This document shows, piece after piece, positions 1-37,879 of a stretch of DNA of 64,000 nucleotides (the stretch's first letter is position 1; each line of letters begins with the position of its first letter). The notes under the pieces were generated by a model. The model was not told the DNA's origin. It ran no database searches and was given only the letters and a program-made list of their open reading frames with translations. Location: positions 2,782-66,781 of the forward strand of contig JAGVHI010000004.1 of assembly GCA_020056635.1 (NCBI GenBank). The letters are read 5' to 3'. Made by a program: the position numbers and the translations under genes. The stretch is from an archaeon (GTDB lineage Archaea > Micrarchaeota > Micrarchaeia > Anstonellales > Anstonellaceae).

Positions 1-1335
1 TGCGCCAATTCAAGCGAATGCTGCAACTGGAACTGCGGGGAAGCCAGCCCTGGCAAGTTCGCTTGCTGCAATGTAGAAAACCAGAGCTGCTCACATAATT
101 CCGATTGCTGCCTTGGGATGGAATGCGGTGAAGGGGGAAAGTGCTTCTACCCGGTCCCGAACCTACAGGCGGATGCGCAAGTAGCCAATTATACTATGAG
201 GTACGGGTTTGCGCAGAATATACCTGTCCGGACCTGGAATTCAGGCACAGGGCCGAGCGTGAATGTTTCCACTACCAGGGTGGAGTGGGACGGGGTTGAG
301 GTCGCGGCATTTGGCATCCCCTCGCTCATGCCAGCGGAAGAGAACATTCAGAATGTTTCAATCTCGTGCACCACCGCAGGAGTCAAGCAATTGGTGGTCA
401 CTGCGGATTATGGAGGGACAGTCGGAGAAAGCGATGAGAGCGATAACACAGCAACATACTCTATTGCATGCAGCTGCCCGGTATGCGAATACACATCAAG
501 CGTGGACTACCTCAACATGAACATAGGGGAGAATGTCGCGCACCGCGCGTTTGACATAAACATATCAGTTGCCAATGCATATCTTACTGCCCTTTGGTTC
601 GATGATGTGATCCTTAGGGATTATGGGGCGGGGTACCTGAACGGCCAGAGGGTGTTCTATGACGTCTCTCCCGGGCCTGGCGATACAGGGAACTGCGGGA
701 ACGACCCGCACTACGGCCCGTTCTATGTGGACCCTGCTTTGCTGAACCAGAATCCCTACTATGTGAATGCGCTCCATTTTGACATTGTGGATTTCTGCCT
801 TGGCCAGGTGGGGTTCGGGCTGGATGTCGGGTACAATGTGAGTGTAGTTCCGCTTGAGAACCAGAGCTGCGCCTGCCCACCCAGCCCGGAGGGAATAGTG
901 AACATTTCGGACATTTACTTTGCGAGCACCTGCGGCCCCCCAAGGGAGTTTTTCAACACGAGCATATGCCCTTCGGGGGTCTGCGCATGGAACGAACCCC
1001 CCGCACCTGGCGCGTGCACAATATGCAGCACGTTCCCGACCGTGTGCAGCAGCAATGGGCAGTGCTGCAACGGAAGGTGCGAGGATTACAATGGGACTAT
1101 GAGGTGCGCTTATGGGCCGATGAACAGGAATGGAGCTTGCGATGTAGAGTATTCCTCGCCATCCCCGCCGGGCTTCGTTTGCGTCCCGGACTGCAGCGGG
1201 CCTGCGGACTGCCCGCTCCCGCTCCAGTGCGTGTCCGGGAGCTGCCTGTTCCCATGCTCGCCGAACGGGAACCCGAATCCCGACTGCGGTTCGTATACAA
1301 CGCGGTGCAGGAACGGGTATTGCACATATCCTTAA
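1..1335 (+). CDS. Cys-rich secreted surface protein, 5'-truncated by the window edge (CARDB-like domain plus knottin-like Cys modules). Paralogue of the giant proteins at 24.5-36 kb.
   Basis: Frame 1 is open from nt 1 (CANSSECCNWNCGEASPGKFACCNVENQSCSHNSDCCLG...) straight into listed ORF 118..1335. 'GESDESDNTATYSIACS' resembles the E-x-[DN]-E-x-[DN]-N end motif of CARDB-type domains. The C-terminal third is dense in Cys (CSSNGQCCNGRC, CSGPADCPLPLQCVSGSC). Confidence 0.75.
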   Translation, partial: CANSSECCNWNCGEASPGKFACCNVENQSCSHNSDCCLGMECGEGGKCFYPVPNLQADAQVANYTMRYGFAQNIPVRTWNSGTGPSVNVSTTRVEWDGVEVAAFGIPSLMPAEENIQNVSISCTTAGVKQLVVTADYGGTVGESDESDNTATYSIACSCPVCEYTSSVDYLNMNIGENVAHRAFDINISVANAYLTALWFDDVILRDYGAGYLNGQRVFYDVSPGPGDTGNCGNDPHYGPFYVDPALLNQNPYYVNALHFDIVDFCLGQVGFGLDVGYNVSVVPLENQSCACPPSPEGIVNISDIYFASTCGPPREFFNTSICPSGVCAWNEPPAPGACTICSTFPTVCSSNGQCCNGRCEDYNGTMRCAYGPMNRNGACDVEYSSPSPPGFVCVPDCSGPADCPLPLQCVSGSCLFPCSPNGNPNPDCGSYTTRCRNGYCTYP

Positions 1336-1386: not shown

Positions 1387-2238
1387 ATGAAAGATGCAAA
1401 GTGGATAGTTATTCTTCTGTTTGTAACACTGGTTTGGGGAGCGACTTTCCCCTTGGTTAAGGATACGCTCAAAGTATTTGATGCGTTTGCGATGATGGGG
1501 ATGAGGTTTTTGATTGCTGCAGCGTCTGTTTGGCTGTATCTGAAATTTGCTGGAGGGAAACTGGAGAGGGAGGAATGGAGGCATGGGGCGGTGCTTGGGT
1601 TCCTTTTGTTCGTGGGGTACGGGATGCAAACCTACGGGTTGAATTATACTGAAGCGACAAAGAGCGCATTTATCACAGGGCTGTATGTGATCGGGGTGCC
1701 AGTGCTCTCTGCGCTGCTGTTGTCAAGAAGGAGTGAAAGGAAGATTTGGATTGCGGCTGCGCTTGCGGCCATTGGATTGTGGCTATTGAGCGGCGCGGGA
1801 AGCAATTGGAATTTGGGGGATGGGGTTACACTCATTACTGCAGTCGCGTTCTCATTGCACATAATATATACGGGAATGATTGCAAAAAGATGCGGGCCGG
1901 TCGGGCTTTCGGTTGCGCAATTGCTCGTGTGCGGGGTGCTGTCCTTAGTTCCGATGGTTGCGTTGGGGGAAACCCCAGCTGAGTTCCCGCTTGGGGCGCT
2001 GGGGGCAGTTGTGTTTTTGGGAGTAGTTGCAAACGGATTTGCGATGTGGGCGCAGAGCGCGGCGCAGAGGGTGATGGATGCATCAAGGGTTGCGCTGGTG
2101 TTCATTGGCGAACCGGTGTTTGCTGCAGTCATTTCTGTTATGCTTTTCGGGGAAATTCTGAGGGAGATGCAGATTGTTGGGGCTGGGTTGATACTTGCAG
2201 GGATGGTTGTGGCGGAATGGGAAAAGGTTAAGTTGTAG
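1387..2238 (+). CDS. EamA/DMT-family (drug/metabolite) transporter
   Basis: 283 aa with about 10 hydrophobic segments. The N-terminus 'LLFVTLVWGATFPLVKDTL' and an internal duplication are typical of EamA domains. Confidence 0.8.
   Translation: MKDAKWIVILLFVTLVWGATFPLVKDTLKVFDAFAMMGMRFLIAAASVWLYLKFAGGKLEREEWRHGAVLGFLLFVGYGMQTYGLNYTEATKSAFITGLYVIGVPVLSALLLSRRSERKIWIAAALAAIGLWLLSGAGSNWNLGDGVTLITAVAFSLHIIYTGMIAKRCGPVGLSVAQLLVCGVLSLVPMVALGETPAEFPLGALGAVVFLGVVANGFAMWAQSAAQRVMDASRVALVFIGEPVFAAVISVMLFGEILREMQIVGAGLILAGMVVAEWEKVKL
2212..2238. repeat. 27-bp direct repeat, copy 1 (3' end of the EamA gene including its stop codon)
   Basis: gcggaatgggaaaaggttaagttgtag. It matches 2931..2957 at 26/27 positions. 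Confidence 0.9.
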
Positions 2239-2262
2239 ATAAATTTATCCAGAAAAGATATA

Positions 2263-2270
2263 TTTATATA
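2263..2270 (+). promoter_or_regulatory. TATA-box-like element upstream of the putative antitoxin gene
   Basis: 'tttatata' lies 23-30 nt upstream of the ATG at 2293, a spacing consistent with an archaeal leaderless or short-leader promoter. Confidence 0.4.
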
Positions 2271-2292
2271 CTTATTAAGCATAAATAATGCC

Positions 2293-2568
2293 ATGAAAAG
2301 CAAACAAGTCCAAATGCAGGTAATGCATTCGCCTACCCTGAACACTGTCCTTATGGTGGAAAAAGAATTGCAGGAAGCAAGGGAAATAGTCAAAGTTTCT
2401 GAGCTCAAAGAGAGCCTGCCTAGGAAGGTTATGCATTCCACATTGCTGCAAATCCTTGATTACCTGCAGCAGAGCGGGAAAATAATCATTACAACCAAGG
2501 GAGTAGTTTGGGTATACCGGCCAAGCGCACAAATGGAGGCGCTTCGGGCAAGCGGGCTGGAATTATGA
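2293..2568 (+). CDS. Small protein, putative antitoxin partner of the downstream RelE/ParE-like gene
   Basis: 91 aa. Its stop overlaps the downstream start in an ATGA motif (2565-2568), a typical toxin-antitoxin operon arrangement. No family recognised by eye. Confidence 0.45.
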   Translation: MKSKQVQMQVMHSPTLNTVLMVEKELQEAREIVKVSELKESLPRKVMHSTLLQILDYLQQSGKIIITTKGVVWVYRPSAQMEALRASGLEL

Positions 2569-2927
2569 GCGCACGGCCCGTTAGAGTTGTTTTGCTTGAC
2601 CAGGCAAAAGCCGAATTTGAGGAGCTGAATAGGATTGCTGCGAAGCAGCAGGCAAAAGGGGAAAAAAGTTCGGAAGAGATGCAACTTCTCAAATCGATAA
2701 AGCAGAAAATAGAAATAATAAAGTTAAACCCTGTTTACGGTGACAAAATACCAAAAGAGCAGATTCCGAAAAACCTTGATGTGCCGAATCTATTCCACGT
2801 GGGCCTTACAGGGTATTGGAGGATGGTTTACTCCTTGCAAGGGAACCAGATCGAGATAGTCGCGTTTGTGCTGTATATCGTTGACCATCCGAGTTATGAT
2901 AAAATATTCGGATATCGGAAAAAGTAG
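2565..2927 (+). CDS. RelE/ParE-superfamily toxin-like protein
   Basis: The C-terminal 'GYWRMVYSLQGNQIEIVAFVLYIVDHPSYDKIF' resembles the [Y/W]R-[IV]-[IV]-Y ... I-x-[IV]-x-x-[IV]-x-H ... Y core of RelE/ParE toxins. The start was moved to the ATG at 2565 (ATGA overlap) instead of the listed 2508. Confidence 0.55.
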   Translation: MSARPVRVVLLDQAKAEFEELNRIAAKQQAKGEKSSEEMQLLKSIKQKIEIIKLNPVYGDKIPKEQIPKNLDVPNLFHVGLTGYWRMVYSLQGNQIEIVAFVLYIVDHPSYDKIFGYRKK

Positions 2928-2930
2928 CTT

Positions 2931-2957
2931 GCGGAATGGGAGAAGGTTAAGTTGTAG
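2931..2957. repeat. 27-bp direct repeat, copy 2 (non-coding duplicate of the EamA 3' end)
   Basis: gcggaatgggagaaggttaagttgtag. One mismatch to 2212..2238, and the copies start 719 bp apart. Confidence 0.9.
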
Positions 2958-2975
2958 GAAAGGAAAGCTGGAAAA

Positions 2976-4613
2976 ATGTTTCATGAGCAATATGAAACGA
3001 TGGGCTGGCAAATTTCAGAAATTTACGAACCCCTAAACAGGCACTGGAAAGCCACGTGCAAGGCTATTTTTGGGGAAGAGGTAGGGGAGCTTTCTGAGTT
3101 TGAGGAATGGCTTGCGAAGTACAATAATCCGCTGCCCTCGAGAAAATCATCAGCTTCAGGAAGGAATGTCTCATTCGTGCTTCCGCATTATTCAAAGTCC
3201 GCACCAATTTTCTCCATGGATGAGGTGGATTTCAACAGGAAATTTGAGCCACTGAACATCAATGAGGTCAAGGATATGGATTCCATAGCGGAAGCTGTGA
3301 GGGAAAGGATTGCTTACACAGGGAACATCTGGCTTGGGAATTCGCAGTTTGTGGCTGAGAGCACGGACATAATGGACAGCTTTTACGTATTCAAATCCTC
3401 ACAGATAACCAGCTCGAAATATATCGCGCATGGATTCCATATGGAATTTTCAGAAAATTGCTTTGGGACATTGCACCATGGGAATTGCGTGAATTGCATA
3501 CGCATGATGGATTCGGATTTCCTGAGCAGGTGCTTTGAGGTTTACGGGTGCGAGGAAACAGCAGATTCGTATTACTCACACCATATTTTCAACTGTAAGA
3601 ATTGCCTTTTCTGCTTCAATATCCGCAATGCGCACCATGCAATTGGGAACTTGGAGCTGCCGCAGGAAAAATACCTCGAGCTAAAAAGGAAATTGATGGG
3701 CGAGATGGCGAATGAGCTGCGAACGAAAAAAGAGCTGCCCACCCTGCTTGAATTGGTCGGGAATCCGGAACCGGATATTGCGGAAATGAGGGAAATCAAA
3801 AAGAATCTGGGCAAGAAGCAAGCGGCCCCAATACATCCGGAAATTATTGAGAGCGCATTTTCCAAAACGACAGGGGTTATTCTTGGGAAGAGCCTTACAG
3901 GCATTGAAAAGTACCATAATTGGCTTTCAGAATTCATGAAGCCGACGAAACGCTGCAAGTCCGCGCTCACAGGGGAGGAAATGATTGTGGTTGGAACGCC
4001 GTATTATATCAGGTACCCTGAGAACAGGCTGGCAAGCGAAGAGGAATCCATACTTCTTGGGAATAGTTTGAAGATTGCGCCTGAGGAATTGGAGAGGTTC
4101 GGGCTTGAAAAGGCAAAAAAGTTCATTGGAAAGATTGCGTACTTCCATCCTGGAGTGGATTTCGGAAAGCTATCGAATATCATAGAAAGCCATGAGAACG
4201 TGAATGCAACTGACATGTTCCGGAGCGTGATAAACATTTCATCGAAAAAATGCGCCTACAGCTACGTCATAATCGAATCGGAATCTATATTCGGATGCCA
4301 TTCCATCCGGCAGTCCGGCTTCCTGCTGCGGTGCTATCTGTCTTCCAAGCTCAACAGATGCTTTGAGGTGGATTCATCAAGGGAATGCTTTGACTGTTAC
4401 TTCTGCCATAATTGCGAGAATGTGCAGGATTCGATGTTCTGCTTCAATGTGAAAAATAAGAGGTATGCGATTGGGAATTCGGTTTTCGCAAGGGACGAGT
4501 ACTTGAGGGTGAAGGGGATGCTGCGCGAGGAGCTTGTTTCGAGATTGAAAGAGGGGAAGGGGCTGAAGCTCAATATTTTCAATATTGCAGAATGTGGGAA
4601 AGAAAGGTTGTAG
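2976..4613 (+). CDS. Cys/His-rich protein of unknown function with an internally duplicated C-x2-C module
   Basis: 545 aa. It has two related modules: 'RCFEVYGCEETADSYYSHHIFNCKNCLFCFNIRNAHHAIGN' and 'RCFEVDSSRECFDCYFCHNCENVQDSMFCFNVKNKRYAIGN'. Confidence 0.65.
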   Translation: MFHEQYETMGWQISEIYEPLNRHWKATCKAIFGEEVGELSEFEEWLAKYNNPLPSRKSSASGRNVSFVLPHYSKSAPIFSMDEVDFNRKFEPLNINEVKDMDSIAEAVRERIAYTGNIWLGNSQFVAESTDIMDSFYVFKSSQITSSKYIAHGFHMEFSENCFGTLHHGNCVNCIRMMDSDFLSRCFEVYGCEETADSYYSHHIFNCKNCLFCFNIRNAHHAIGNLELPQEKYLELKRKLMGEMANELRTKKELPTLLELVGNPEPDIAEMREIKKNLGKKQAAPIHPEIIESAFSKTTGVILGKSLTGIEKYHNWLSEFMKPTKRCKSALTGEEMIVVGTPYYIRYPENRLASEEESILLGNSLKIAPEELERFGLEKAKKFIGKIAYFHPGVDFGKLSNIIESHENVNATDMFRSVINISSKKCAYSYVIIESESIFGCHSIRQSGFLLRCYLSSKLNRCFEVDSSRECFDCYFCHNCENVQDSMFCFNVKNKRYAIGNSVFARDEYLRVKGMLREELVSRLKEGKGLKLNIFNIAECGKERL

Positions 4614-4652
4614 TATTAAATAGTTTCATGTGGTAAGTAGTTCGGGAGAGAA

Positions 4653-5084
4653 ATGAACATTTTTAGCAAGTTCGGAAGGAAACCTGTTGCTGATTCCCAT
4701 CATGCGCAGCCAAAGGAAGCGCCGCTTGTTGAAAGGCTGAAACTGTCGGCAATTGAGCTAAGCGAGAGGATTGGGAGGCTGGATCCGAAAGTGAAGCATC
4801 CTTCTTCTTCGCAGGAATCCAAGGATTTGTTCCCGATGGGCGGCATCATTTACCGGAACTCTGCGGAAAGCGCAAGGGGGGAGCCCATTGGGAGGCTCTC
4901 AGAGCGTGAAGACAAAACTAAGCATCGCTACAATTTGGAATATGCAGAGCTTGATGAGCAGGTGCTTGTGCGGGAGATTACAGCTGCGCATTCAAGGGGA
5001 GAGGAAACTTATATCAGGTTCAAAAATTCGGGCGAGGCTGAGCTGCTTATTGTAAAGCTTGTCGCAGATGGAAGGGGGCAGTAG
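4653..5084 (+). CDS. Hypothetical protein
   Basis: 143-aa ORF in an otherwise unoccupied interval. No motif recognised. Confidence 0.4.
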   Translation: MNIFSKFGRKPVADSHHAQPKEAPLVERLKLSAIELSERIGRLDPKVKHPSSSQESKDLFPMGGIIYRNSAESARGEPIGRLSEREDKTKHRYNLEYAELDEQVLVREITAAHSRGEETYIRFKNSGEAELLIVKLVADGRGQ

Positions 5085-5090
5085 CTGTTT

Positions 5091-6143
5091 CTATATTGTA
5101 AGGAAGAACTGCTTAAGCATCAGGCTCACCAGGAAATAGACAAGGAGGGAGATGCCAATCATGAACGGGATGAACTTTATCCCTCCTTTTTTGGAGCCTG
5201 ATTGTATCACCCCTATTATGAAAGAGGAGAAGATTGCAGTCACTACTGAAGAGCCAAGCGTGAAGAGCTGGAATGCGGAAAGGGAAATCGAAACAGGGGC
5301 GGGGCGCGCGAAACCAAGGTCTGGAACTGCGCCTGCGGGCGGGAGAGGGACTTCTTTTAGCACCTCAATGAGCTTTGAGGAGACGCCGAACAGGAACGGG
5401 GTGCCAAGCGCTGCTGCGAACGAGACGAATATCACGTACATCATGAGCGAGGCTGCGATCTCCTTGGAAATCATCTGCATGTTGCGCGTGTCATCCGCAG
5501 TATGCTCGAGTATCTGCGCCATCTCGCCGCCGGATGCTATGCCCTGCTTTAGGAGCGCAACAACGCGCTTTATTGATTTGGAGGAGAAGCGCTCAGCAAA
5601 CCGGTCGATTGCCTGGTTGAAGGGGACTCCCCCGAATGTCTGCTTTGCAACAGTTTCAACTTCTTTTGAGAGCAGGCCGAACTCGGGCTTTGCGGCATAC
5701 CACATGGCCTGGTCCAAAGTCATGCCAGCGCGGACGTTGGAGGCTGCAAGAGTGAGGAAATTGGGGAGCGCATTTTCAACCGAGCGCTTGCGCGCGTCGG
5801 TAACAAGGATTACAAACACATAGACCAGGAGCGAGAGGAGCGCGAATGCGAGAAGCGTGCCCACCACTATTCCAAGCAGGGTCACAAAGAGCGGGCTTGT
5901 AATGGTGAGGGATTGGAATGCGGCAAGCGAAAAGGAAATGAGCAGGCGCTGCAAATCCGGGATTGAGAGGATGGAAAGGGAGAAGAGAACAGAGAGGAGG
6001 GCGCCCATCACAAGGAAGAAGCCTGCGAACGCTTCTGGGACCATGTTCATTCCGGCCGAATCAAGCGCGCTGCCAAGCTCGCGTATCCTAGTGCGCGGGA
6101 AGAGCCGCCCGATTGCCTCGTATGCTTCGAATTTCATAATCAC
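5091..6143 (-). CDS. Type II secretion system F-domain membrane protein (TadC/ArlJ-half-like platform subunit)
   Basis: 350 aa and polytopic. The region 'NFLTLAASNVRAGMTLDQAMWYAAKPEFGLLSKEVETVAKQTFGGVPFNQAIDRFAERF' is T2SSF-like. Its start overlaps the stop of the upstream gene by 4 nt. Confidence 0.8.
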   Translation of the reverse strand: MIMKFEAYEAIGRLFPRTRIRELGSALDSAGMNMVPEAFAGFFLVMGALLSVLFSLSILSIPDLQRLLISFSLAAFQSLTITSPLFVTLLGIVVGTLLAFALLSLLVYVFVILVTDARKRSVENALPNFLTLAASNVRAGMTLDQAMWYAAKPEFGLLSKEVETVAKQTFGGVPFNQAIDRFAERFSSKSIKRVVALLKQGIASGGEMAQILEHTADDTRNMQMISKEIAASLMMYVIFVSFAAALGTPFLFGVSSKLIEVLKEVPLPPAGAVPDLGFARPAPVSISLSAFQLFTLGSSVVTAIFSSFIIGVIQSGSKKGGIKFIPFMIGISLLVYFLVSLMLKQFFLTI

Positions 6144-7051
6144 ACCAAATCAAACTTAGGGCGCGAGGATTCCACGACCGAGAGGAACAGGTATTGTATC
6201 AGGGTCACAAGCGCGAATATCAGCAGGAGCGCGGTGTCGCCTATTTGGAAGCGGCCGCCGCCTACGATTGAGATGAGTATGATCAGGAACGCGACACCGA
6301 GGGAAGGGAGGATGATTCCGAATATCATGTAGAACATCACAATCGGGTTTAGCTTCTGCCCGTATTCCTTGAGCTTTATTATCTGCTCCTTTGTGATCTG
6401 CTCAAGCACGGACTCGAGCGCCTTTGCGCTGTCCGAGCCGGAAACCAATGCGTTTGCAAGCTGGAGTATCACCCTGCGGAACGCGGAAGAGGGGTTGTTC
6501 ATCGCAACCTCGTGCATCGCAAGCGTTGCTGGAACCCCGAGCGCAATCTTCTCAACTATCTTGTTGAACTCCACTGAGACCTCGCCGTAATCGCGCGAAA
6601 CCCCGAGCATCGCATCAAACAGCGGGACTCCGGATTTGAGCTCGATTAGCATGTGCCTGCAGGCAAATACCAGCTCCTGGTCTATGGCGCGCTCGCGCTG
6701 CATTATCTTCACATCCGGGTAGAACATGAAATAGAAGAATGAGAGCACAAGGAATATCGGGGCAAGCGGGAGCAGGAATATTATCGAAACATTTAGCGAG
6801 TTGAATGCGATGAAGAGGCCGAATAGGATTAGGATGGTGGCGACGGTTGCGCCTTGGAGCGCAAGTGAGATGAATTTCGTGTTGTCGTAGGGCAGGTTCG
6901 CCTGCTGCAGCTTTGTTTTGAGCTCAGGGAAGTAGGAGGAGATGTATTGGAGCAGGTTTCGCAGCGGCGAGGGGGCGGATTCCTGCACAGACTCGCGGAT
7001 TGGGGAGGAAATAAGCGGGTGAGGCGACTTGTCCTTGTGCTTTTCCTTCAT
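6140..7051 (-). CDS. Type II secretion system F-domain membrane protein (TadB/ArlJ-half-like platform subunit)
   Basis: 303 aa. The region 'LVFACRHMLIELKSGVPLFDAMLGVSRDYGEVSVEFNKIVEKIALGVPATLAMHEVA' is T2SSF-like and is followed by C-terminal TM helices. Confidence 0.8.
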   Translation of the reverse strand: MKEKHKDKSPHPLISSPIRESVQESAPSPLRNLLQYISSYFPELKTKLQQANLPYDNTKFISLALQGATVATILILFGLFIAFNSLNVSIIFLLPLAPIFLVLSFFYFMFYPDVKIMQRERAIDQELVFACRHMLIELKSGVPLFDAMLGVSRDYGEVSVEFNKIVEKIALGVPATLAMHEVAMNNPSSAFRRVILQLANALVSGSDSAKALESVLEQITKEQIIKLKEYGQKLNPIVMFYMIFGIILPSLGVAFLIILISIVGGGRFQIGDTALLLIFALVTLIQYLFLSVVESSRPKFDLV

Positions 7052-7057
7052 GCGTTA

Positions 7058-8884
7058 TCACTTCTTGCGGAACTTCTTAATATTATCTTCCAATTCCGAG
7101 AATGCGGAACCGGAGGATGGGCCTTGCGAAGGGACATCCATCTGGGGGGAGGTGGATTCCTGCTCGACGCCCCCGCGCCCCATATGCGCCTTTACCTGCT
7201 TTCGCAGGTCATCGAGGGAAACCCCCTTCATGTTGTATATTTCAATGAGCCAAGGCATATATTGCCTTGCGTATCCCAGAACCTGCGTGTCGTCCTCTCC
7301 CCCGAGCGAGGCTGCGTTGAGCGGCTTTACAATTCCAGGAGGCTGCGCACCCTTAGGCTTTAGGGAGAGGGGTTCTGGAGCTAAAGCTTCCTTGGGGGCA
7401 ACAAGCTCTTCTATCTCATCCACTATTTGCGGCTTGGTTTTTGCAATCGATTCCGGAACATCGAACAGCCTTTTCTTTTCAGGAGCGGCTTTTGGAGCCG
7501 GCTTGTCCTCATCGCCCCAGTAAAATTCCTCGCTCTTGCTTGTGGGTTGCGTGGCTGGCGCTTCCTCTTGAGCGATCGCGTCTGCTGGCTCGGGAGTTTG
7601 TAATGTGCGCTTTGGGGCAGGGGGTTCATCTGTTTCGAGTTTCATTCTTTGCACAGGGGAGTATGTTTCAACTTGGTTTTTTGCTGCAGCGGCTCGCACC
7701 GGCTTTGGGACCACTTTTGGGGCAGGGGGTTCCTGCTCCTCTTGGGAAACAGGCGGGGGCTGAGCTTTCTTTTGAGCTGGCTTTTTCGCAGGGGTTCTTG
7801 GAAGCCAGGGAGAAGCAGAAGCTGATTTTGAGGGGGGTTGCGAGGGGGCAGTGCGGGATTGGGTGAGCCAGGGGAGCGAAGAGGGAACTGTGCGGGAGTC
7901 GGTTTGGGCGAGAGGTTGCTTTGCAACTGGAGCAGCCTCAGGCTCTTGCGAAGAAACAAGAGCGGAGGGCGCTATTGCAGGTTCGGGCTTAAAGCGTGAT
8001 TTTGCAAGCGAGGGCTTGGGAATTTCCAGCTCATCCTCAAGTGCGCGCGCTTTTGGAGCGGAATATGGTTCAGGCTCGAATTGCTTTGGCGCGGGTTTGG
8101 CAATCACTGGTGCGGGAGCTGTTGTGGGTTCGCTGGAGAGCGTTGCAATTGAAGCGGGGAGTGTTTCATTTGGAATTGAAATGGATGAGGCAGTGGGCTT
8201 TGCTGCTGGCGAGGGGGGGATTTGAGGGGCGAATATGCGCTGCGAGGGCTTTGTGATTTCCTGCCAGGGTTCTTGTGAGTAGGGGGCTTCTGCGGGCAGC
8301 GCTTGCGAAGCTGGTTGAGGAGATTGCACTTTGGGGGGAAGTTCTGCTTGCTCCGGGACTGAAATCACTTGGAGTTTTGCGGCCTGGGGGGCGGCTGCGG
8401 CCTTCTGCTGCGAAGGCTTTTTTGCGAATGAGTTTTTGAGCTTTGCGAAAAGCGATTTGTCCTCTTGCGCAAGCTGGGGAATTGAAACAGGCATAGCAGT
8501 TTCCTCCTCAAGCTTTTCAGGCGGGCGAAGCTCAATCGGGATGGAGCTTTGATCCTTTTTCCCGGTGCGCCGCTCCCGTATTTTTGCCTCTTCCTTTGAG
8601 TACTTGCCAAGCATCTCAAGCTCGGTTTGCGAAAGCGCCTGGGGTGCCTGCTGAATTGTCTTGTCGTATGAGCGGGCAGCGAGCCTGCGCTCAACCGATT
8701 GGGAGGAAATGAGCAGGTAGGAGTAGGAAAGATCGTTTAGGTCCTTGGGCTCGTAGTCTATGGGCTTTAAGTCCCCGGGCTTTACCGCAACCGGGCGGGA
8801 GGGGACCTGCATGGGCTGGCGCTCGATGGTGCGCACATAGTTGATTAGGGCGCCCAGGTCAGGGAGAGAGAGTTCCTCTGCCAT
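7058..8884 (-). CDS. P/A/Q-rich low-complexity protein with small structured N- and C-terminal ends (pilus-operon accessory protein)
   Basis: 608 aa. Its ATG shares one base with the ATPase stop (TAATG at 8882-8886). The central region of roughly 400 aa is proline/alanine-rich. Co-directional and tightly packed within the operon. Confidence 0.6.
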   Translation of the reverse strand: MAEELSLPDLGALINYVRTIERQPMQVPSRPVAVKPGDLKPIDYEPKDLNDLSYSYLLISSQSVERRLAARSYDKTIQQAPQALSQTELEMLGKYSKEEAKIRERRTGKKDQSSIPIELRPPEKLEEETAMPVSIPQLAQEDKSLFAKLKNSFAKKPSQQKAAAAPQAAKLQVISVPEQAELPPKVQSPQPASQALPAEAPYSQEPWQEITKPSQRIFAPQIPPSPAAKPTASSISIPNETLPASIATLSSEPTTAPAPVIAKPAPKQFEPEPYSAPKARALEDELEIPKPSLAKSRFKPEPAIAPSALVSSQEPEAAPVAKQPLAQTDSRTVPSSLPWLTQSRTAPSQPPSKSASASPWLPRTPAKKPAQKKAQPPPVSQEEQEPPAPKVVPKPVRAAAAKNQVETYSPVQRMKLETDEPPAPKRTLQTPEPADAIAQEEAPATQPTSKSEEFYWGDEDKPAPKAAPEKKRLFDVPESIAKTKPQIVDEIEELVAPKEALAPEPLSLKPKGAQPPGIVKPLNAASLGGEDDTQVLGYARQYMPWLIEIYNMKGVSLDDLRKQVKAHMGRGGVEQESTSPQMDVPSQGPSSGSAFSELEDNIKKFRKK

Positions 8885-10434
8885 TACTTATACACCGTGC
8901 TCCATTCGGAATTTTTCTTTGCCGCGGAAAGCACTTCATCCGGGTTCACGTAATAGCGCGAAACTATCTCGCCCACAGTGTTCACGTCCTTGTGATTGCG
9001 CTTGACCATCCATTTTATGATTTCGCTCTTGTCTTCCACGTCCTGGTCTATCTCTTTTTGCGTGAGCCCTGCGTAGAGCGAGAGGGTCGCGGCAAGCGTG
9101 ACCATCTTGTTCGCCTCCATCACCTTGTCTGATTTCACGTCCCAGCGGTAGAGCACATTGGGGTCACCGCCCTTCTGCACCTCTGCAAATTCCAGGGTGC
9201 GGCGGATGTTGAAGCGCCTGTGCCTGTACTGCACCACTATCCCTGAGAGCGCATCTATCATCTGCTTGGGAACGTTTATGGGCGCGTTTGTGAGCCTCTG
9301 CACAGTCTGCGCAGCATTGTCCGCATGCAGCGTTGCGTAGACCGCATGCCCGGTGTGCATAGCCTCGAAAAGGATTTCCGCCTCGCGCTGCTTTCGCACC
9401 TCCCCCACTATTATGCGATCAGGGCGCTGGCGCAATGCGTTTGCAAGCAGGTCGAGCATGGTGATTTCCCCTTTCCCCTCTGCGTTGGGCTCGCGCGTGA
9501 CCATCGGGACCCATTGCAGGAAAGAGGGGAGAGTAAGCTCGCGCGTGTCCTCAATCGAAATTATCCTGTGGTTTGCTGGAATCAGGCAGGAAATCGCATT
9601 TAGGAAAGAGGTTTTCCCAGAGCCTGTCCCTCCGGAAACCAGAAGCGACATCTCGTTCTGTATGCAGAGCCAGATGAGCGCCGCAACGTTGGGCGAGATG
9701 CAGTTGAGCTCAACCAAATAGGGAATGGTCCAGGGGTTCTTGGAGAATTTGCGTATGGTTATGGTGTTCCCGAAAGAGGAAATCGGCGCGAGGGTTGCGT
9801 TCACACGCTCGCCTGACCCAAGGTGCGCGTCCATGAGCGGGTTTAGGATGTTTATCTGCTTTCCCACTTTCCTGCCAATCATAGCTGCGTAATCGTAAAT
9901 CGACTCCTCGTTCTTGAGCGCGATGTTGGTGCGGCACCAGCCGTATTTCTTGTGGTACACCCACACGGGGTCGGTGGAAGAGTTGATTGCGACCTCTTCT
10001 AGGTGCTCATCGTGCAGCGGGGCTTCAAGCTCGCCTAGACCGAGCGTGTTCTGTATAAGATAGGAGGAGAGCACGGATTTTGTCTCATCCGAGAGAGAGG
10101 GGAAGTGCTTTGTGAGAAGCGACATCGCCTTTGCGTCGAATTTTGCGCGCACCTCTTCCCTTCGCTTCTGGTCCATTATTTCAGTGATTTCAAGCTTCAC
10201 GTTTGTGATGAGCTCGCCTTTCAGCGTGTTCAGCACGAGCTTGGTTCCCTCGGAAAGCCCGCGGACGGACATTTCGTAGTGCGGCACGAACTCTCCCTTG
10301 CGGTAGAGGATGCGCACCGAAACCGGGATTCCCTCGTTGTCAAACGAGTAGGACTCGATTTCCTTGCCTTTCATCGCTTCCGGCACAGGTATCTGCCCGG
10401 GCATGTCACGTTTTGCTTCGACCATCCAAACCAC
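8884..10434 (-). CDS. Type II/IV secretion-family ATPase (ArlI/FlaI/PilB/CpaF-like assembly ATPase)
   Basis: Walker A 'LVSGGTGSGKTSFLNAI', Walker B/Asp-box region 'RIISIEDTRELTL', 'PDRIIVGEVR' and a His-box 'TGHAVYATLHA'. Confidence 0.9.
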   Translation of the reverse strand: MVWMVEAKRDMPGQIPVPEAMKGKEIESYSFDNEGIPVSVRILYRKGEFVPHYEMSVRGLSEGTKLVLNTLKGELITNVKLEITEIMDQKRREEVRAKFDAKAMSLLTKHFPSLSDETKSVLSSYLIQNTLGLGELEAPLHDEHLEEVAINSSTDPVWVYHKKYGWCRTNIALKNEESIYDYAAMIGRKVGKQINILNPLMDAHLGSGERVNATLAPISSFGNTITIRKFSKNPWTIPYLVELNCISPNVAALIWLCIQNEMSLLVSGGTGSGKTSFLNAISCLIPANHRIISIEDTRELTLPSFLQWVPMVTREPNAEGKGEITMLDLLANALRQRPDRIIVGEVRKQREAEILFEAMHTGHAVYATLHADNAAQTVQRLTNAPINVPKQMIDALSGIVVQYRHRRFNIRRTLEFAEVQKGGDPNVLYRWDVKSDKVMEANKMVTLAATLSLYAGLTQKEIDQDVEDKSEIIKWMVKRNHKDVNTVGEIVSRYYVNPDEVLSAAKKNSEWSTVYK

Positions 10435-10508
10435 ATCCGGTATTATTGATTATCTACTGGCGTCCAGTTACTTCTTGTCCCCGTTATTGTTCCTCTGATA
10501 GTTTACGA

Positions 10509-11978
10509 TCACTTCTTGTCCTCTTCCCACATCTTGCGGATGAGCCCTCGCAGCTCCTCGCGCTTTTGTTCAAAATCCTTTTCCTCATCAGTGGTGAGCT
10601 GCACCCTCTGCTCGATTGCCTGCACCTGCGGGCCCTGCGACTCAAGGTTCACTATCGCGGCCTCGCCCTCTATTGCGCGCAGCTTGAGCGAGAGCTCCTG
10701 CTGGCGCGCGCGAAGCTGCTCTGTAGCCTCCATCACTTTCCGAATCTCATCCTGCTTGCCCTTTGCCTGCGAAAGCCGCGAGAGCACCTGCTTGCCGGAA
10801 TCTATCTCAGCCCTTATTTCCTCGTGCAGCGGGCCTGCGTAGGACTCGAGCTCTGAAGCGTATTCAGTCAGCTTGCGAAGCGATTCGGAAATTTCGGAGC
10901 GGATTTGCGACAGCCTTTGCAGGTCTGAATCTGTTACGCCCTTTGCGCCCACAGCAGGCTTGGAAACCTGCTGCGCCTTGTAAGCGGACTCGAACTTTGC
11001 AAGCAATTTTGAAACGGTTGCGGCGTTTGCACCAAGCTCGCGCTCAAGCTTCTTCTTCTCCTCCTTTGCAGCCGCATGGAGCTCGCGCAGCTGCGCGAGC
11101 GATTCCTCAATAGCATCGGAAACTATTTTCGGGGACTGCGCGCTTGAGAGCTCTTCGGAAATTTTTTCAGTGTCCTCCGCGATTATCTCCTGCTCCTGCG
11201 CAAGCGCCTCAATCTGCGCCTCCATCTTCTCCACTTTCTCAATAAGCGAATCGAGCTTGGATTGAAGCGCGTCCGCTTTCTGCATGTAGCCGGATTTCGC
11301 CTCCTCCTCTGCGGCTGATACTTTTGCCTCGATGTCCGAGTACACGGATTCGGACTGCGCAATCAGGTCCTGTATGTCGTCGCGGAAGCGCGCAAGGTCC
11401 GAAATCTGCTCGCGCTCAATCGTAATCCCGGAAGTTGAGGGGCCTTTTGCGCCTTTTGAGCGCTCAATCGAGCCTGAGAGCCGCGCTTCAAGCTCGGAGA
11501 ACTCCTTTCGAAGCGTTGCAAGCCGCGCAGCCTCGGAATTGAACAGGTTCTGCGTTTTCGCATCCATGTCCTCAAGCGCGGAGAGCTTTTCGTGCAGGGC
11601 GTGAAGCCTGTCCTCAACATCGCCAAGCATGCCTGAGTATTCGGTTTGCAATGATTCCAAGTCGCCGGACTGCTCCTCGACCCGCTGCTCGAGCGAGTGT
11701 ATCTGCTCGGCCACTTCCGATTTGCGCTCGGTGATTTGCGCTGCGCGCGCCTCAAGCTTCTTTGGCTCAGGCTCAATCCAAACAAGGTAGGCTTTTGTGA
11801 GCTTGTACTCTATTGTGATTATCCCTTCCTGCTCGAGCACCGCTGCCCAGTCCTGCACGTTTTGCGGGGTGAGAGAAAGCGCCTTAGCTGCGGAATTGAG
11901 CTCGATTTTGCCTTTTTCGCGCACAAGCTTGATTAGGCTGTCAACTCCCGTGGAAATAAGCAGGTCGTCGATTGCCAT
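10509..11978 (-). CDS. Coiled-coil protein with an N-terminal wHTH-like module
   Basis: 489 aa. The N-terminal ~65 aa 'LIKLVREKGKIELNSAAKALSLTPQNVQDWAAVLEQEGIITIEY' is wHTH-like. The remainder has a heptad-like, E/K/L/A-rich composition. Confidence 0.65.
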   Translation of the reverse strand: MAIDDLLISTGVDSLIKLVREKGKIELNSAAKALSLTPQNVQDWAAVLEQEGIITIEYKLTKAYLVWIEPEPKKLEARAAQITERKSEVAEQIHSLEQRVEEQSGDLESLQTEYSGMLGDVEDRLHALHEKLSALEDMDAKTQNLFNSEAARLATLRKEFSELEARLSGSIERSKGAKGPSTSGITIEREQISDLARFRDDIQDLIAQSESVYSDIEAKVSAAEEEAKSGYMQKADALQSKLDSLIEKVEKMEAQIEALAQEQEIIAEDTEKISEELSSAQSPKIVSDAIEESLAQLRELHAAAKEEKKKLERELGANAATVSKLLAKFESAYKAQQVSKPAVGAKGVTDSDLQRLSQIRSEISESLRKLTEYASELESYAGPLHEEIRAEIDSGKQVLSRLSQAKGKQDEIRKVMEATEQLRARQQELSLKLRAIEGEAAIVNLESQGPQVQAIEQRVQLTTDEEKDFEQKREELRGLIRKMWEEDKK

Positions 11979-12097
11979 CAGGGGAAACTGTATATCGAAA
12001 TATTATAAAGATGTAGGGCATGCTTACGGATGAGGGGCGGGAGCGAGATTATTAAGTTTCCCGTGCGAGACATGGATTAGGAAATTGGGGATTTTTC

Positions 12098-13747
12098 ATG
12101 GATGCTGGGCAAAATTCGTACCCGAAAAAGACCGAGCGGCGGCCGCTTGACCGGTTTAGGAACCAAAGCGCGCTATTGCAGCAGTTCGGGGAAGACGGGA
12201 TTCGGGTTTATGATGCGATTGACGGGAGGAAGAGCTCCGGGGAGATCGCCGCCTCGCTTGGAATCGAGTGGGGGAAGTATGACCAGATTGCCTCCTTTAT
12301 GGCGCAGAATGGGATGATTTCGTATTCTGATTCCAAAGAGGCGCCTGCGCCTTTTTCCGCGCCGAGCTACCCCCAGGCGCCAGCGTATCCAAGGGAGCAG
12401 CCGCAAGCGCCAGCTTCAGGTGCGCAGCAACCCGCATACCCAAGGCAGCCCTCACAGTACTCGCAGCCGCCCCCTTCGGCAGCCTATCCAAGCGCGCAGC
12501 AGCCATCGGCTGCGCGATATCCTTCAAGGGCGCAGCCATCGCAATATTCACAGCCTTCTCCCGCACCGAAGTACGGGCAGCCTGAGCAAAAAGCGCCCGG
12601 AGCGCAGTATGCTTCAAACGAATCCCGGGGAACCCCTGCAATTCAGCCAGAGAGGCCGTGGGCGCCCAAGCCTACTATATATGGGAGGGAAGAGCCGCAG
12701 GAAAAAGGGACAGAACAGGAACCCTACACAAGGCCGGTGCCTGCGGAAAGGATACAGCCAGGCGAGCGTGAGGAGAGGCCGTTTGCGCCAACTCCCCCGA
12801 AGCAGCCCCCCGAGCTTGGGAACATCGCACCCCCGTATAACCCAAGTGACGAAGGGCACCCGGTGATTGCACCGCAGAGCGGGAGGGGGGAGCAGAAACA
12901 GGAGGTGGAAACCTCAGGGGTTGCGGCAATGTCCCCGCTGGAAAAGCTCATCTTCGGGAAATACGGGGAGCTTGGGATATTGGTGTATAATTTGATTGAC
13001 GGGCAGAAAACAGCGGAAGAGATAATGATGGAGACAGGGATTTCGGAAGTGAAATTAGTCGAGATACTTGAGTTCATGGACAGCCAGGGGATAATCAAGC
13101 TTGAGAGGCCGGAGGAGGAAAGCATTGCACCGCCGCCCCAGACCGAACAGCCTGAGCTTCGGCCCATGGTTGAGGAGAAGGGGATAGAGAATGTGCCTGA
13201 GGAGCCAAGCGATGAGAAGCTGGGAATTGTGCCAATCGATGTGCCGGTGCTGAATAAGGGGAACATATTGCAGAAGGTGGAGATTAACGCGCTGCTCACT
13301 TTCAAGTACGGAAAGCAGGGGCCTGCATTGCTTGGGATGGTGGATGGGAAAAGGGATTTCGTGCAGCTCTCGCTTGAATCCAGGCTTGCGCTTGTGGAGA
13401 TTGATGCAATCATGGGCTTTGTTGGGACGCATAATTTGGCGACCTTCCGCACCATGACTAGGGAGGAGATAAAGAAGCAGTATGGGGAGGACGGGTATAC
13501 TATTTACAAGAAGTTTGGGAGGGACGGGGTGCTGCTGTACGAGATGATTGGGAAGGAGGGGAACCTGAGAGATATTATTGTGCACTCAAAAATAGACCCG
13601 GAGCGCGCAGTGGAAATATTCATGTTCATACATTCAGTGCTTGGGCTGGAGCTTCCTCTTGACAGGGAGATGCTGTACAAGCAATTGGGGATTAAGAAGC
13701 CGCCTACAAGCAGCTCGCCCTCGAACCCGCCTGCCCCGCCAGCGTAA
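12098..13747 (+). CDS. P/Q-rich protein with four copies of a ~40-aa wHTH-like module
   Basis: Repeated modules: 'VYDAIDGRKSSGEIAASLGIEWGKYDQIASFMAQNGMISY', 'VYNLIDGQKTAEEIMMETGISEVKLVEILEFMDSQGIIKL', 'LLGMVDGKRDFVQLSLESRLALVEIDAIMGFVGTHNLATF' and 'LYEMIGKEGNLRDIIVHSKIDPERAVEIFMFIHSVLGLEL'. Confidence 0.65.
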   Translation: MDAGQNSYPKKTERRPLDRFRNQSALLQQFGEDGIRVYDAIDGRKSSGEIAASLGIEWGKYDQIASFMAQNGMISYSDSKEAPAPFSAPSYPQAPAYPREQPQAPASGAQQPAYPRQPSQYSQPPPSAAYPSAQQPSAARYPSRAQPSQYSQPSPAPKYGQPEQKAPGAQYASNESRGTPAIQPERPWAPKPTIYGREEPQEKGTEQEPYTRPVPAERIQPGEREERPFAPTPPKQPPELGNIAPPYNPSDEGHPVIAPQSGRGEQKQEVETSGVAAMSPLEKLIFGKYGELGILVYNLIDGQKTAEEIMMETGISEVKLVEILEFMDSQGIIKLERPEEESIAPPPQTEQPELRPMVEEKGIENVPEEPSDEKLGIVPIDVPVLNKGNILQKVEINALLTFKYGKQGPALLGMVDGKRDFVQLSLESRLALVEIDAIMGFVGTHNLATFRTMTREEIKKQYGEDGYTIYKKFGRDGVLLYEMIGKEGNLRDIIVHSKIDPERAVEIFMFIHSVLGLELPLDREMLYKQLGIKKPPTSSSPSNPPAPPA

Positions 13748-14026: not shown

Positions 14027-14764
14027 TTAGCCTTCTTTTTCCTCCTCATCCTTCCCGAGCTCGGTGAATATGCCCTGCCCGGGGTATACTTTCATCCCCA
14101 CCCCGGAAACGAATTCGAACGGGGAGAGCTTTTGCGAGTGCGTGCTCCCGCGGATTTTTAGCACCTCAAGCGCGTGTATCCGAACGCCCCCCTGCCGCGG
14201 GTGGTGGAGCGCGATTATCACATCAGGTATGTATTCCATCCCGGCGCTCGTGCGAAGCGGAGCGGCGCGTATTTCCTCCCCTGAGAACATTGCGGTGATG
14301 CTCCACTTGCGCACCATCTCAAAAAGCGATATCTGCGCCTCCCTTGCCTGGTACGCGCTCTCAAAAAGCATCGAGTAGGAGGTGAGGGAGTCTATTGCAA
14401 TCCTTTTTGCGTCTATGCTCTTTATCGAGTCGAAAATCAGCCCGCCTCCCTCATCCACCAGCTTTTTCACCTCGTGGGGCTTGTAGGAGACAGTGAGGAA
14501 CATGTTCTCTTCCTCGAGCTTCTCAAAATCCCAGCCGTATGCCTCGAAATGCTTGTTTATTGCATCTTTCGGCTCCTCGAAAGAGAGGAAAAGCCCTGGC
14601 TCCTTGCGGTTAACCGCGCCGTTGTAAAGGAATTGGAGCAGCATCGTGGTCTTGCCGGTTCCGGTGCCCCCCATCACAAGGACTGTGCTGTTGCGCTCGA
14701 ACCCGCCGCCAAGAAGCTCATCAAGCCCTTCGATTCCCGAGGGCATTCGTTCAACACCGGCCAT
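14027..14764 (-). CDS. Single-domain KaiC/RadA/ArlH-like RecA-superfamily ATPase
   Basis: 'GIEGLDELLGGGFERNSTVLVMGGTGTGKTT' (Walker A). The ATG at 14764 sits 24-31 nt downstream of a TATA element, whereas the listed ORF begins at a TTG at 14785. Confidence 0.8.
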   Translation of the reverse strand: MAGVERMPSGIEGLDELLGGGFERNSTVLVMGGTGTGKTTMLLQFLYNGAVNRKEPGLFLSFEEPKDAINKHFEAYGWDFEKLEEENMFLTVSYKPHEVKKLVDEGGGLIFDSIKSIDAKRIAIDSLTSYSMLFESAYQAREAQISLFEMVRKWSITAMFSGEEIRAAPLRTSAGMEYIPDVIIALHHPRQGGVRIHALEVLKIRGSTHSQKLSPFEFVSGVGMKVYPGQGIFTELGKDEEEKEG

Positions 14765-14787
14765 CGCGCTTTCTATCCGCGTCAATC

Positions 14788-14846: not shown

Positions 14847-15551
14847 ATGGTTGCAATCGCGCGCGTGAAAACCGGGATTCCGTCCCTTGATGCAATAATG
14901 GGAGGCGGGCTCCCTCCGCAATCTAACATACTGGTGTATGGCGAGCCCTTGTGCGGGAAGAAACCCCTGATAATGCAGTACATTTACCAGGGGTTGCAGG
15001 AGGGGATGCCGGGCATGTTCGTGCTCACGGATTACGGGGTGGTGGAATGGGCGAACATGATGAGGCAGGGCGGATGGAATTTGGAAACTGTTAAGGACCA
15101 GTCGCTCATACACTTTGTTGATGCGTATACGAAGCAGTTCCAGCCAGGCCTTGAGGACAATCCCAATATCGCGTATGTGGAGCACCCAAGCGCCATCAGT
15201 TCGGTTGCGCTGCACATCTCCTCGATGCAGGATGAGATTTTGAAAGCAGGCGGGAAGGAGCACAGGCTTGCGTTCCATTCCATTTCCTCCTTGCTCGAGG
15301 AGTGCGATTCTAAAACAGTGTTCAACTTTTTGCATTATGTCACTGGAAAATTCAGGATGGCTGGCGCGACTGCGCTCTACACCATGGAAAAGGGGATGCA
15401 CTCGCCTGTAGAAGTGAACATGGTTGAGCATTTGATGGATGGGATAATAGAGTTTGAAGGGGAGAATGTGAAAGTGAAGGGGATTTTTGGTTCGGACGCG
15501 CAGGTGCACGCGTACAAAATTACGCCGAGGGGTATAACGATAAAGGTTTAG
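14847..15551 (+). CDS. Single-domain KaiC/RadA/ArlH-like RecA-superfamily ATPase (degenerate P-loop)
   Basis: 'GIPSLDAIMGGGLPPQSNILVYGEPLCGKKPL'. The P-loop reads GEPLCGKK rather than GxxGxGKT. The start is set at the ATG at 14847, because the listed 14646 start would overlap the divergent gene. Confidence 0.75.
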   Translation: MVAIARVKTGIPSLDAIMGGGLPPQSNILVYGEPLCGKKPLIMQYIYQGLQEGMPGMFVLTDYGVVEWANMMRQGGWNLETVKDQSLIHFVDAYTKQFQPGLEDNPNIAYVEHPSAISSVALHISSMQDEILKAGGKEHRLAFHSISSLLEECDSKTVFNFLHYVTGKFRMAGATALYTMEKGMHSPVEVNMVEHLMDGIIEFEGENVKVKGIFGSDAQVHAYKITPRGITIKV

Positions 15552-18260: not shown

Positions 18261-18349
18261 GCGCGCAAGCATGGGATGAAAATTGGGGAAAGATGCGCAA
18301 TAGAGTAAGGGAGAGGGGAATGCGAGACTGAAAAAATAGCGGTTTGGAG

Positions 18350-36040: not shown

Positions 36041-36126
36041 TGGGGGAAGATAATGGATAGATTGTTTTTAATGCTATTCTCGATGGAACCGAGAGAAAAA
36101 TGTCTCGGGATCGACAATCTCCTGAA

Positions 36127-36200
36127 CGACAAAAAAACTATCGTTCAGTCGAAAAAAAACTATCGTTCAGTCGAAAAAAAACTATCGATGCCTCGAAAAC
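36127..36200. repeat. About 3.4 tandem copies of a 22-bp unit (tcgaaaaaaaactatcgttcag)
   Basis: Units at 36127-36148 (diverged 5' end), 36149-36170, 36171-36192 (diverged 3' end) and a partial unit at 36193-36200 that runs into the att-like repeat. Confidence 0.9.
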
Positions 36201-36347
36201 CAGGTGAGGGAATCGAGTGCTAGGAGGTTAGGTTTTTCTCTCTCTACCTCATAAAAGCCCTATTCTTTTGCCCTCTTTCGCCCTGCTAGGCTGCCAATTA
36301 GGGTGAAACTACCCCGAAGAATGGCTTATTTACTCCCTGAAATTCAT

Positions 36348-37545: not shown

Positions 37546-37733
37546 TACTCCACCCCATAAGGGTTAAACAAACAGGGCTTTATACGCCTTTCTCTAAGAC
37601 GTGCTAGGCTGCCTTATTTACTGAAAGACTATTTCAAAACAAAGACTAAAATATTGGTTTTATGGCTTTTACGTCGGTAAATCGGATAAACTGAACCTGG
37701 CGTTTTCTATTCTCCGACGTAAAAATAACTTTA

Positions 37734-37825: not shown

Positions 37826-37879
37826 GAATAGAATAACTGATAAAAATTAGGGGAAACTAGGTTAAAAAGGGTTTAGCGC

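Follow-up and report, generated by a model that had tools for sequence, protein, structure and literature searches.

We analysed a 64-kb stretch of a Micrarchaeota (DPANN) genome, hereafter called the window, in which five co-directional genes on the minus strand, between positions 5091 and 11978, encode the core of a putative type IV filament assembly machine. An earlier note on this DNA had described the five open reading frames (ORFs) as a tightly packed operon for a coiled-coil protein, a PilB/ArlI-family ATPase bearing the Walker A sequence GGTGSGKT, a 608-amino-acid (aa) protein rich in proline and alanine, and two T2SSF-domain proteins. Our results confirmed these gene identities and coordinates as well as the two tight junctions. 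At the first, TAATG at 8886-8882, the ATPase stop codon and the start codon of the 608-aa protein share 1 nucleotide (nt). At the second, GTGA at 6143-6140, the two platform genes overlap, and an alternative ATG lies 2 nt past the stop. A 6-nt spacer (7052-7057) separates the gene of the 608-aa protein from that of platform half 1, and the coiled-coil gene is about 75 nt away from that of the ATPase. Furthermore, a sixth conserved gene, which the earlier note had overlooked, is divergently transcribed from the plus strand at 12098-13747. The intergenic region between the coiled-coil gene and this sixth gene is A/T-rich, with TATA-like stretches (TATATCGAAATATTATAAAG), and is presumed from its sequence to be the shared promoter region of both. 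The gene order is identical in an independent Logan assembly of this organism, down to the convergent gene abutting the operon's end. The features discussed here are listed in Table 1.

Table 1. Coordinates within the window of the filament assembly genes, of neighbouring regions and of proteins with class III-type N-termini.
Feature	Position	Strand	Evidence or remarks
Platform half 2, polytopic T2SSF protein, 350 aa (348 aa from ATG at 6137)	5091..6143	-	PF00482, E 7.3e-15
Platform half 1, polytopic T2SSF protein, 303 aa	6140..7051	-	PF00482, E 1.3e-17
Low-complexity disordered protein, 608 aa	7058..8884	-	Conserved ends; no family; start overlaps ATPase stop
PilB/ArlI/GspE-superfamily assembly ATPase, 516 aa	8884..10434	-	PF00437 T2SSE, E 4.8e-40
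Winged-helix-like and coiled-coil protein, 489 aa	10509..11978	-	Alignment of homologues; sub-threshold matches only
Divergent intergenic region, 119 nt	11979..12097		A/T-rich TATA-like stretches
Four-winged-helix-like-domain protein, 549 aa	12098..13747	+	Divergently transcribed; alignment of homologues
Lower-GC segment (~0.45 vs ~0.55), ~3 kb, abutting operon end	2000..5084		Occupies the position of the relatives' pilin gene
Two giant proteins, 1304 and 2495 aa	24527..36040	-	SKG|QSSSEYL and SRG|QSSSEFL; pilin-like module
Candidate small trans pilin, 138 aa	40231..40647	+	KKA|QVSAELLIIVGF N-terminus (KKA|QVSAELL); class III scan
Candidate trans pilin, 221 aa	54785..55450	-	FRG|QTSTEYV N-terminus, beta domain, Cys-rich tail

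The ATPase is the only one of the PilB/ArlI/GspE type within the window, and alignments to afGspE, FlaI and CpaF revealed an Asp box, a Walker B motif and a His box in addition to the Walker A motif. Its top NCBIfam match was the FlaI model, at 286.8 bits for a cut-off of 550; the scores for the TadA family (190.9 bits, cut-off 373) and for BasE (142.6 bits, cut-off 1000) were also below threshold. Among solved structures, it matched afGspE (2OAP) with 253 bits, FlaI with 204 bits and CpaF with 160 bits, and the identity over the core was 43%, 41% and 36%, respectively. In a rough neighbour-joining tree built with three Protein Data Bank references, which is too thin for assigning a Makarova clade, the window ATPase fell among unnamed DPANN-type sequences and away from both afGspE and FlaI. 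A search of representatives at 50% identity likewise returned only unnamed DPANN-type relatives. The nearest protein cluster is 89% identical, and the few named near relatives outside Micrarchaeota belong to Altiarchaeota and Diapherotrites. Database labels on the homologues vary, some reading 'FlaI' and others 'CpaF family', and tblastn of the ATPase against plasmids produced only haloarchaeal and bacterial CpaF-like matches at about 34% identity, which are uninformative. The protein is clearly neither an archaellum ATPase nor BasE, and it does not appear to be a bacterial-type CpaF.

The two T2SSF proteins correspond to the two halves of a single ArlJ/PilC-type platform. Platform half 1 aligns with positions 10-249 of the 555-position ArlJ profile, i.e., with the N-terminal half of ArlJ/PilC, and hydrophobic segments flank its T2SSF domain. 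Platform half 2 aligns with positions 293-553, the C-terminal half, and gave a weak UpsF match. The halves are mutually paralogous (E ~1e-8), and the models that they match are those of ArlJ and UpsF, with no match to bacterial TadB/C models.

To place this locus among its relatives, we used the 80 genome loci that best match the ATPase (51-76% ATPase identity; labelled L001 and so on), nearly all of which come from metagenome-assembled genomes of Candidatus Micrarchaeota, Micrarchaeia or Anstonellaceae. Many of these loci stop at contig ends, so that the gene counts obtained by tblastn are lower bounds. The order ATPase, low-complexity ORF, TadB-like gene and TadC-like gene is kept in about 60 of the 80 loci. 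tblastn with the window proteins located platform half 1 in 62 loci, at the equivalent position, platform half 2 in 61, the coiled-coil gene in 46 and the divergent gene in 39. A census with hidden Markov models (HMMs) refined this picture. Of the 72 loci that are long enough, 62 encode the N-terminal motif of the disordered protein directly after the ATPase. Among 67 loci, the coiled-coil gene is immediately upstream of the ATPase gene in 32, stands elsewhere in the locus in 11 and is not found within 10 kb in the remaining 24. The four-domain gene is present in 34 of the 53 loci that reach far enough upstream. In every locus with both genes mapped, the four-domain gene adjoins the coiled-coil gene on the opposite strand, even where the pair has moved. 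Therefore, based on these census counts, the ATPase, the disordered protein and the two platform halves form a tight core, and the coiled-coil and four-domain genes are a linked divergent pair that is usually but not always attached to it.

Many DPANN-type relatives of the ATPase are about 1000 aa long and are interrupted by inteins (Intein_splicing and LAGLIDADG endonuclease matches). In one of them, P0128, the interruption falls close to the Walker A region (query residue ~275); another, P0122, shows a LAGLIDADG match only, its interruption lying further downstream (~326). The window ATPase carries no intein. A Diapherotrites ATPase cluster (L084, 8001-9575; L085, 1905-3479), the representative of which shares about 45% core identity with the window ATPase, is found as solitary genes among those for housekeeping functions (a CCA-adding enzyme, LigT and TYW3), with no adjoining platform gene.

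The three soluble partner proteins set the locus apart from better-known systems. None of them has a predicted transmembrane segment or a signal peptide. The 608-aa protein is composed of 14% proline and 12% alanine; a motif of about 70 aa at its N-terminus and another of about 60 aa at its C-terminus are conserved around a variable, P/A/E/K-rich middle, and it matches no Pfam or NCBIfam family. A homologue search with this protein returned only itself, as low-complexity words swamped the candidate list. In nearly all loci, one long ORF of 200-1330 aa, with ends that align and a middle that varies, nevertheless stands between the ATPase gene and the first platform gene; this protein is missing in L035 and L078. 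As called by JGI, the disordered protein has 584 aa and starts 24 codons downstream, omitting window positions 8813-8884, and the Logan gene call agrees with 608 aa. The longer form, with a start overlapping the ATPase stop, is supported because the conserved N-terminal motif lies upstream of the JGI start.

At the N-terminus of the 489-aa protein, a domain of about 60 aa is conserved and shows weak winged-helix matches; a long and variable coiled coil follows, and conservation returns in the C-terminal motif LT..E..EF..KR.ELR.LI.K.WE. Scans of Pfam and NCBIfam with this protein returned only sub-threshold matches to coiled-coil (SMC, Rad50) and winged helix-turn-helix (wHTH) families. In the divergently encoded 549-aa protein, four blocks of about 60 aa are conserved, with variable P/Q/E-rich linkers between them, and many of its homologues carry precomputed TrmB, HTH_5 or wHTH Pfam matches. 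An AlphaFold2 model built from 58 sequences had a mean predicted local distance difference test (pLDDT) score of 74, with helical or structured segments above 90. When this model was submitted to Foldseek, nearly all of the best matches were winged-helix proteins of the GATOR1, RPC34-like, TFE-alpha, Lrp and MarR types, although none was significant (best E-value 0.28). A profile of the winged-helix-like repeat gave no significant match against Protein Data Bank sequences, and its Pfam matches were all sub-threshold. These observations suggest that the four domains of the 549-aa protein likely adopt a winged-helix fold, as judged from the model. The literature searched contained no description of any of the three soluble partners, which seem to be undescribed. 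The earlier note had considered the accessory proteins atypical, and indeed they are uncharacterised and were assigned to no Pfam or NCBIfam family.

As the earlier note had stated, the operon contains no pilin, prepilin peptidase or archaellin gene. The related loci show, however, that the missing pilin, which the note had listed among the traits of this operon, is not a design feature of the machine. In the relatives, the gene for a class III-type protein of about 170 aa (148-217 aa) with the N-terminus [KR]G|QAAMEYLMTYGWALLVIVIV directly follows platform half 2 on the same strand. Fifty-five loci reach past platform half 2; by tblastn, such a [KR]G|QAAMEYLMTYGWA pilin gene was adjacent and co-directional in 46 of them, and two further loci have an operon-type pilin nearby in a different orientation. 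Orthologues of the window ATPase thus sit in operons with a cognate pilin, the counterpart of which in this genome must either be encoded elsewhere or have been lost; by the note's own reasoning, this largely speaks against its reading. The relatives' operon pilins match no Pfam family, and nothing conserved was found beyond them.

The window leaves no room for an operon pilin. The stop codon of platform half 2 lies at 5091-5093; at a distance of 6 nt from it, at the edge of the lower-GC segment, is the end of a convergent gene (4653-5084). Of the three genes of this segment, two (2976-4613 and 4653-5084) lack homologues among the 80 loci; gene 2508-2927 has one in L047 only, together with its EamA neighbour (1387-2238). 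Furthermore, a TPR-AAA gene and a PrsW-family protease gene, which are found just after the pilin gene in L015 and L029, lie 40 kb from the operon in the window (43716-46896, minus strand). The displacement of the TPR-AAA gene relative to these two loci indicates that this genome has been rearranged. We conclude that the missing pilin is a derived state that arose by rearrangement or replacement and is not a property of the system. The pilin gene has been either separated from the operon or lost in this genome, and the pilins must therefore have another source.

A 27-nt direct repeat (GCGGAATGGGAAAAGGTTAAGTTGTAG) occurs at 2212-2238, 2931-2957 and 4587-4613, in or bordering the lower-GC segment in all three cases, with copies that are 96% and 70% identical to the reference. 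Two of the copies include the stop codons of genes 1387-2238 and 2976-4613, and the middle copy lies just past the end of gene 2508-2927. These repeats may be duplicated gene ends left by insertions.

A class III motif scan of the window identified four proteins with class III-type N-termini: the 1304- and 2495-aa giants, the 221-aa protein and the 138-aa protein. All four share Q+1 and E+5 with the relatives' operon pilins. The first ~170 aa of the giants align with the 221-aa protein, as shown by a module alignment and an HMM, and are followed by CARDB and heparinase II/III-like domains (Pfam CARDB, Hepar_II_III_C). The 221-aa protein matches PF04021 below threshold. Its AlphaFold2 model, of low confidence (mean pLDDT 57), combines an N-terminal helix with a beta sandwich, and the best Foldseek matches of this model were archaeal type IV pilins, 8fk7 (E 5e-4) followed by 6w8u and 8q30. 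The 138-aa protein has a weak PF04021 match and shows relatedness (E 8.5e-9) to the product of the second pilin gene located after the orthologous operon of L078, a Woesearchaeota locus. The earlier note had ascribed class III-type N-termini to the giants and to their small paralogue; both attributions were borne out, and the low-confidence model of the paralogue resembles type IV pilins. On these grounds, the four proteins are credible substrates of one peptidase and possibly of this machine. The giants could possibly be minor or tip subunits, or co-processed surface proteins, and any link between them and the operon is one that we infer.

In L006, a 221-aa homologue of the giants' module is encoded divergently next to the ATPase gene, which is the only physical link between module and operon that we found. 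Beside it lies the gene for a 447-aa secreted protein that looks repeat-rich and, by eye, beta-helix-like; the two genes span L006 positions 7814-9831 (minus strand). In the window, the ORF at 118-1335 (plus strand, 405 aa) carries a CARDB domain as the giants do, and its product may belong to the same surface-protein family. Positions 36001-38000, right after the giant genes, have the lowest GC content of the window (0.41) and may be foreign DNA; the ORF at 36667-37545 and the adjacent one at 37880-39055 have no family match. Three KaiC-family ATPase genes, at 14027-14785 (minus strand), ~14860-15551 (plus strand) and 18344-19231 (plus strand), lie 2-7 kb from the operon. The middle one sits in an ORF that a longest-ORF view would misread. 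This neighbourhood is common to 1 of the 80 relatives (L036).

Comparison with known systems separated what is familiar in this locus from what is not. According to the earlier note, the gene content matches none of the archaellum, Aap, Ups and Epd layouts, and in one respect this stands, as the locus is not that of an archaellum or of the Bas, Aap or Ups systems. However, both pilin-less ATPase/TadC loci, which use pilins in trans, and loci with two tadC genes were already known to be common in archaeal clade 1 and clade 2 systems (Makarova, Koonin and Albers 2016, PMC4858521). Two tadC genes occur in many clade 1 and many clade 2 loci, and therefore a split platform does not discriminate between these clades; KaiC-family ATPases are also often found near archaeal type IV pili loci (PMC4858521). 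Diverged type IV pili islands have been described in DPANN genomes (Makarova et al. 2019, PMC6393860). Within the same phylum, 'Ca. Mancarchaeum acidiphilum' Mia14 has two type IV pili systems, the key components of which are common to many Micrarchaea (Golyshina et al. 2017, PMC5498576). One Mia14 system comprises an ATPase (0170), one unlisted gene and two TadC proteins (0172 and 0173) (PMC5498576). Likened by gene table rather than by sequence, the layout of MIA14_0170-0177 matches the succession of ATPase, disordered protein, TadB and TadC in the window. In contrast, MIA14_0170 was assigned to the CpaF family (clade 1), whereas the window ATPase scores higher against afGspE and FlaI, and none of the coiled-coil, disordered and four-winged-helix proteins is described in the Mia14 paper.

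The loci of euryarchaeal clade 2 systems (Haloferax volcanii PilB3-PilC3; afGspE) can likewise be pilin-less and rely on trans pilins; two tadC-like genes are present in many of them, and KaiC-family ATPases are often close by. afGspE (AF0659) is a clade 2 member of arCOG01817 (PMC4858521 supplement) and provides the closest solved structure, yet identity to it is limited to the value given above and the window ATPase lies on a separate DPANN branch of the rough tree. The accessory proteins also differ, and the operon pilin of the relatives matches no Pfam pilin family. Subclade 4F (arCOG01818 ATPase) has a coiled-coil protein, arCOG07564, and occurs in nanoarchaea without identified cognate pilins (PMC4858521). 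Compared by description only, it resembles the window in having an intracellular coiled-coil protein in the locus; it differs in that an extra N-terminal Cys-rich domain is frequent, although not universal, in its ATPases and is absent from the window ATPase. The Epd pili of Methanococcus maripaludis (clade 1) and the bacterial Tad pili share with the window two separate TadB/TadC-like platform genes. However, CpaF resembles the window ATPase less closely than afGspE and FlaI do, and the window operon lacks the EppA-type peptidase, the several minor pilins, FleN/MinD (TadZ) and the DUF2341 adhesin genes of these systems. Modular type IV pilins, in which a pilin module is fused to a functional domain, are known from bacteria, e.g., Streptococcus sanguinis. 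The giants likewise join a pilin-like module to functional domains, but they are far larger and are candidates, at most, for incorporation into a filament. In summary, the core machine and its layout are already known; the accessory set and the derived pilin-less state beside giant modular pilin-like proteins appear to be new.

The combination of assembly ATPase and split platform supports the earlier note's identification of a type IV filament assembly module. We consider it very probable that this is a conserved type IV pilus biogenesis locus of Micrarchaeota, and we infer that its products assemble a type IV filament. PilB/ArlI-family ATPases work as hexamers. Together with the two half-size PilC/ArlJ-like proteins, the ATPase would extract pilins processed by a signal peptidase from the membrane, and these would be polymerised into a surface filament that, in a host-dependent archaeon, would most likely serve attachment to a host or a surface. 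The three soluble partners may sit on the motor as a cytoplasmic scaffold or as a regulatory layer, and synthesis of the disordered protein would be translationally coupled to that of the ATPase. In this genome, pilins would be supplied from elsewhere, with the 221- and 138-aa proteins as the candidates in the window, and the giants, having a like N-terminus, could be co-processed and attached as minor subunits.

Several observations weigh against assigning the locus to pilus assembly. The operon lacks a pilin, and tblastn with 17 operon pilins of the relatives revealed no orthologue in the whole 64 kb. Among the window ORFs scanned, none encodes a prepilin (A24) peptidase. The ATPase appears to belong to its own DPANN-type branch, about equally far from afGspE, FlaI and CpaF, so that its function is extrapolated from distant relatives. 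Finally, the pair formed by the coiled-coil and four-winged-helix genes is missing within 10 kb in about a third of the relatives, and the case for counting it as part of the machine is therefore weaker than for the disordered protein. A more specific form of the proposal would make the soluble trio a DPANN-specific cytoplasmic motor module, the counterpart of ArlCDE/ArlX or PilMNO without sequence relatives, in a machine that, without a pilin of its own, displays giant modular pilins whose polysaccharide-lyase-like domains would act on the host envelope. We regard this only as a tentative suggestion, and as an unlikely one.

Other functions were considered for this locus. The earlier note had proposed that the machine exports or assembles the giants, i.e., that a bindosome-like apparatus displays the enzyme-bearing giants and their small paralogue on the surface instead of building a conventional pilus. 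Several features are consistent with this proposal: the giants and the 221-aa protein share [KR]G|Q...E N-termini with the relatives' operon pilins, their common N-terminal module is pilin-like (as modelled at low confidence from the 221-aa paralogue), the operon pilin is missing from this genome's window, and in L006 a homologue of the module divergently adjoins the ATPase gene. However, this argument starts from a shared 64-kb window, which in a probably small genome is weak evidence, and comparison of synteny placed the module within 10 kb of the ATPase in 1 of the 80 relatives (L006), leaving 79 without it. Furthermore, the conserved partner of the operon is a conventional pilin of about 170 aa, and the BasE model score is far under its cut-off. 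We therefore hold such a display function to be doubtful, and a link of export between the operon and the giants to be plausible, unproven and, on balance, improbable; the proposal and pilus assembly are nonetheless not mutually exclusive. Identity with the bindosome (Bas) itself was rejected on the BasE score, and scans of the window found no solute-binding proteins with class III signals.

Type IV filaments drive DNA uptake in bacteria, and the two conserved neighbouring genes of the pair contain five winged-helix-like domains, which raises the question of whether the machine takes up or transfers DNA or other macromolecules, with the winged-helix proteins binding nucleic acid on the cytoplasmic side. 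DNA exchange via the type IV pili of Mia14 has also been speculated upon by Golyshina et al. (PMC5498576). Nevertheless, neither the operon nor its conserved flanks showed a ComEC-, ComEA- or DprA-like gene, a relaxase gene or a gene for a coupling protein, winged-helix domains often serve protein-protein contacts or ordinary transcriptional control, and divergent placement is what a local regulator would typically show. Such an uptake or transfer function is thus quite improbable. Even less credible, to the point of being hardly worth retaining, is a reduced archaellum locus conferring motility, in which the nearby KaiC-like ATPases would act as ArlH. The FlaI model as top NCBIfam match, the name 'FlaI' given to homologues in some databases and the proximity of the KaiC-like genes favour it, but the FlaI score falls far short of its cut-off, the ArlH model scored 37 for a cut-off of 215, and scans of the locus revealed no archaellin, ArlF/G, ArlCDE or ArlX genes. 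In addition, the platform is split, unlike ArlJ, and the KaiC-like neighbours are kept in a single locus among the 80. Golyshina et al. (PMC5498576) found no archaellum genes in Mia14 either, and remark that most DPANN species have lost motility. Archaellum identity was accordingly rejected on the FlaI and ArlH scores and the absence of archaellins.

Pilus assembly, the reading that we favour, bears on a general feature of these organisms. Cultivated DPANN archaea, Micrarchaeota included, all need physical contact with a host, and the mode of attachment is largely unknown. Around its ATPase, the locus described here is among the most conserved surface-machine loci of the phylum, which therefore makes it a prime candidate for the apparatus by which these cells attach. 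There is nothing unusual about the core machine, and it is the lineage-specific soluble partners that set the locus apart; these three conserved proteins without a family are concrete targets for work on the few cultivated Micrarchaeota. Furthermore, a genome that lacks the operon pilin but encodes giant enzymes fused to pilin-like modules provides a natural test of substrate switching by such machines.

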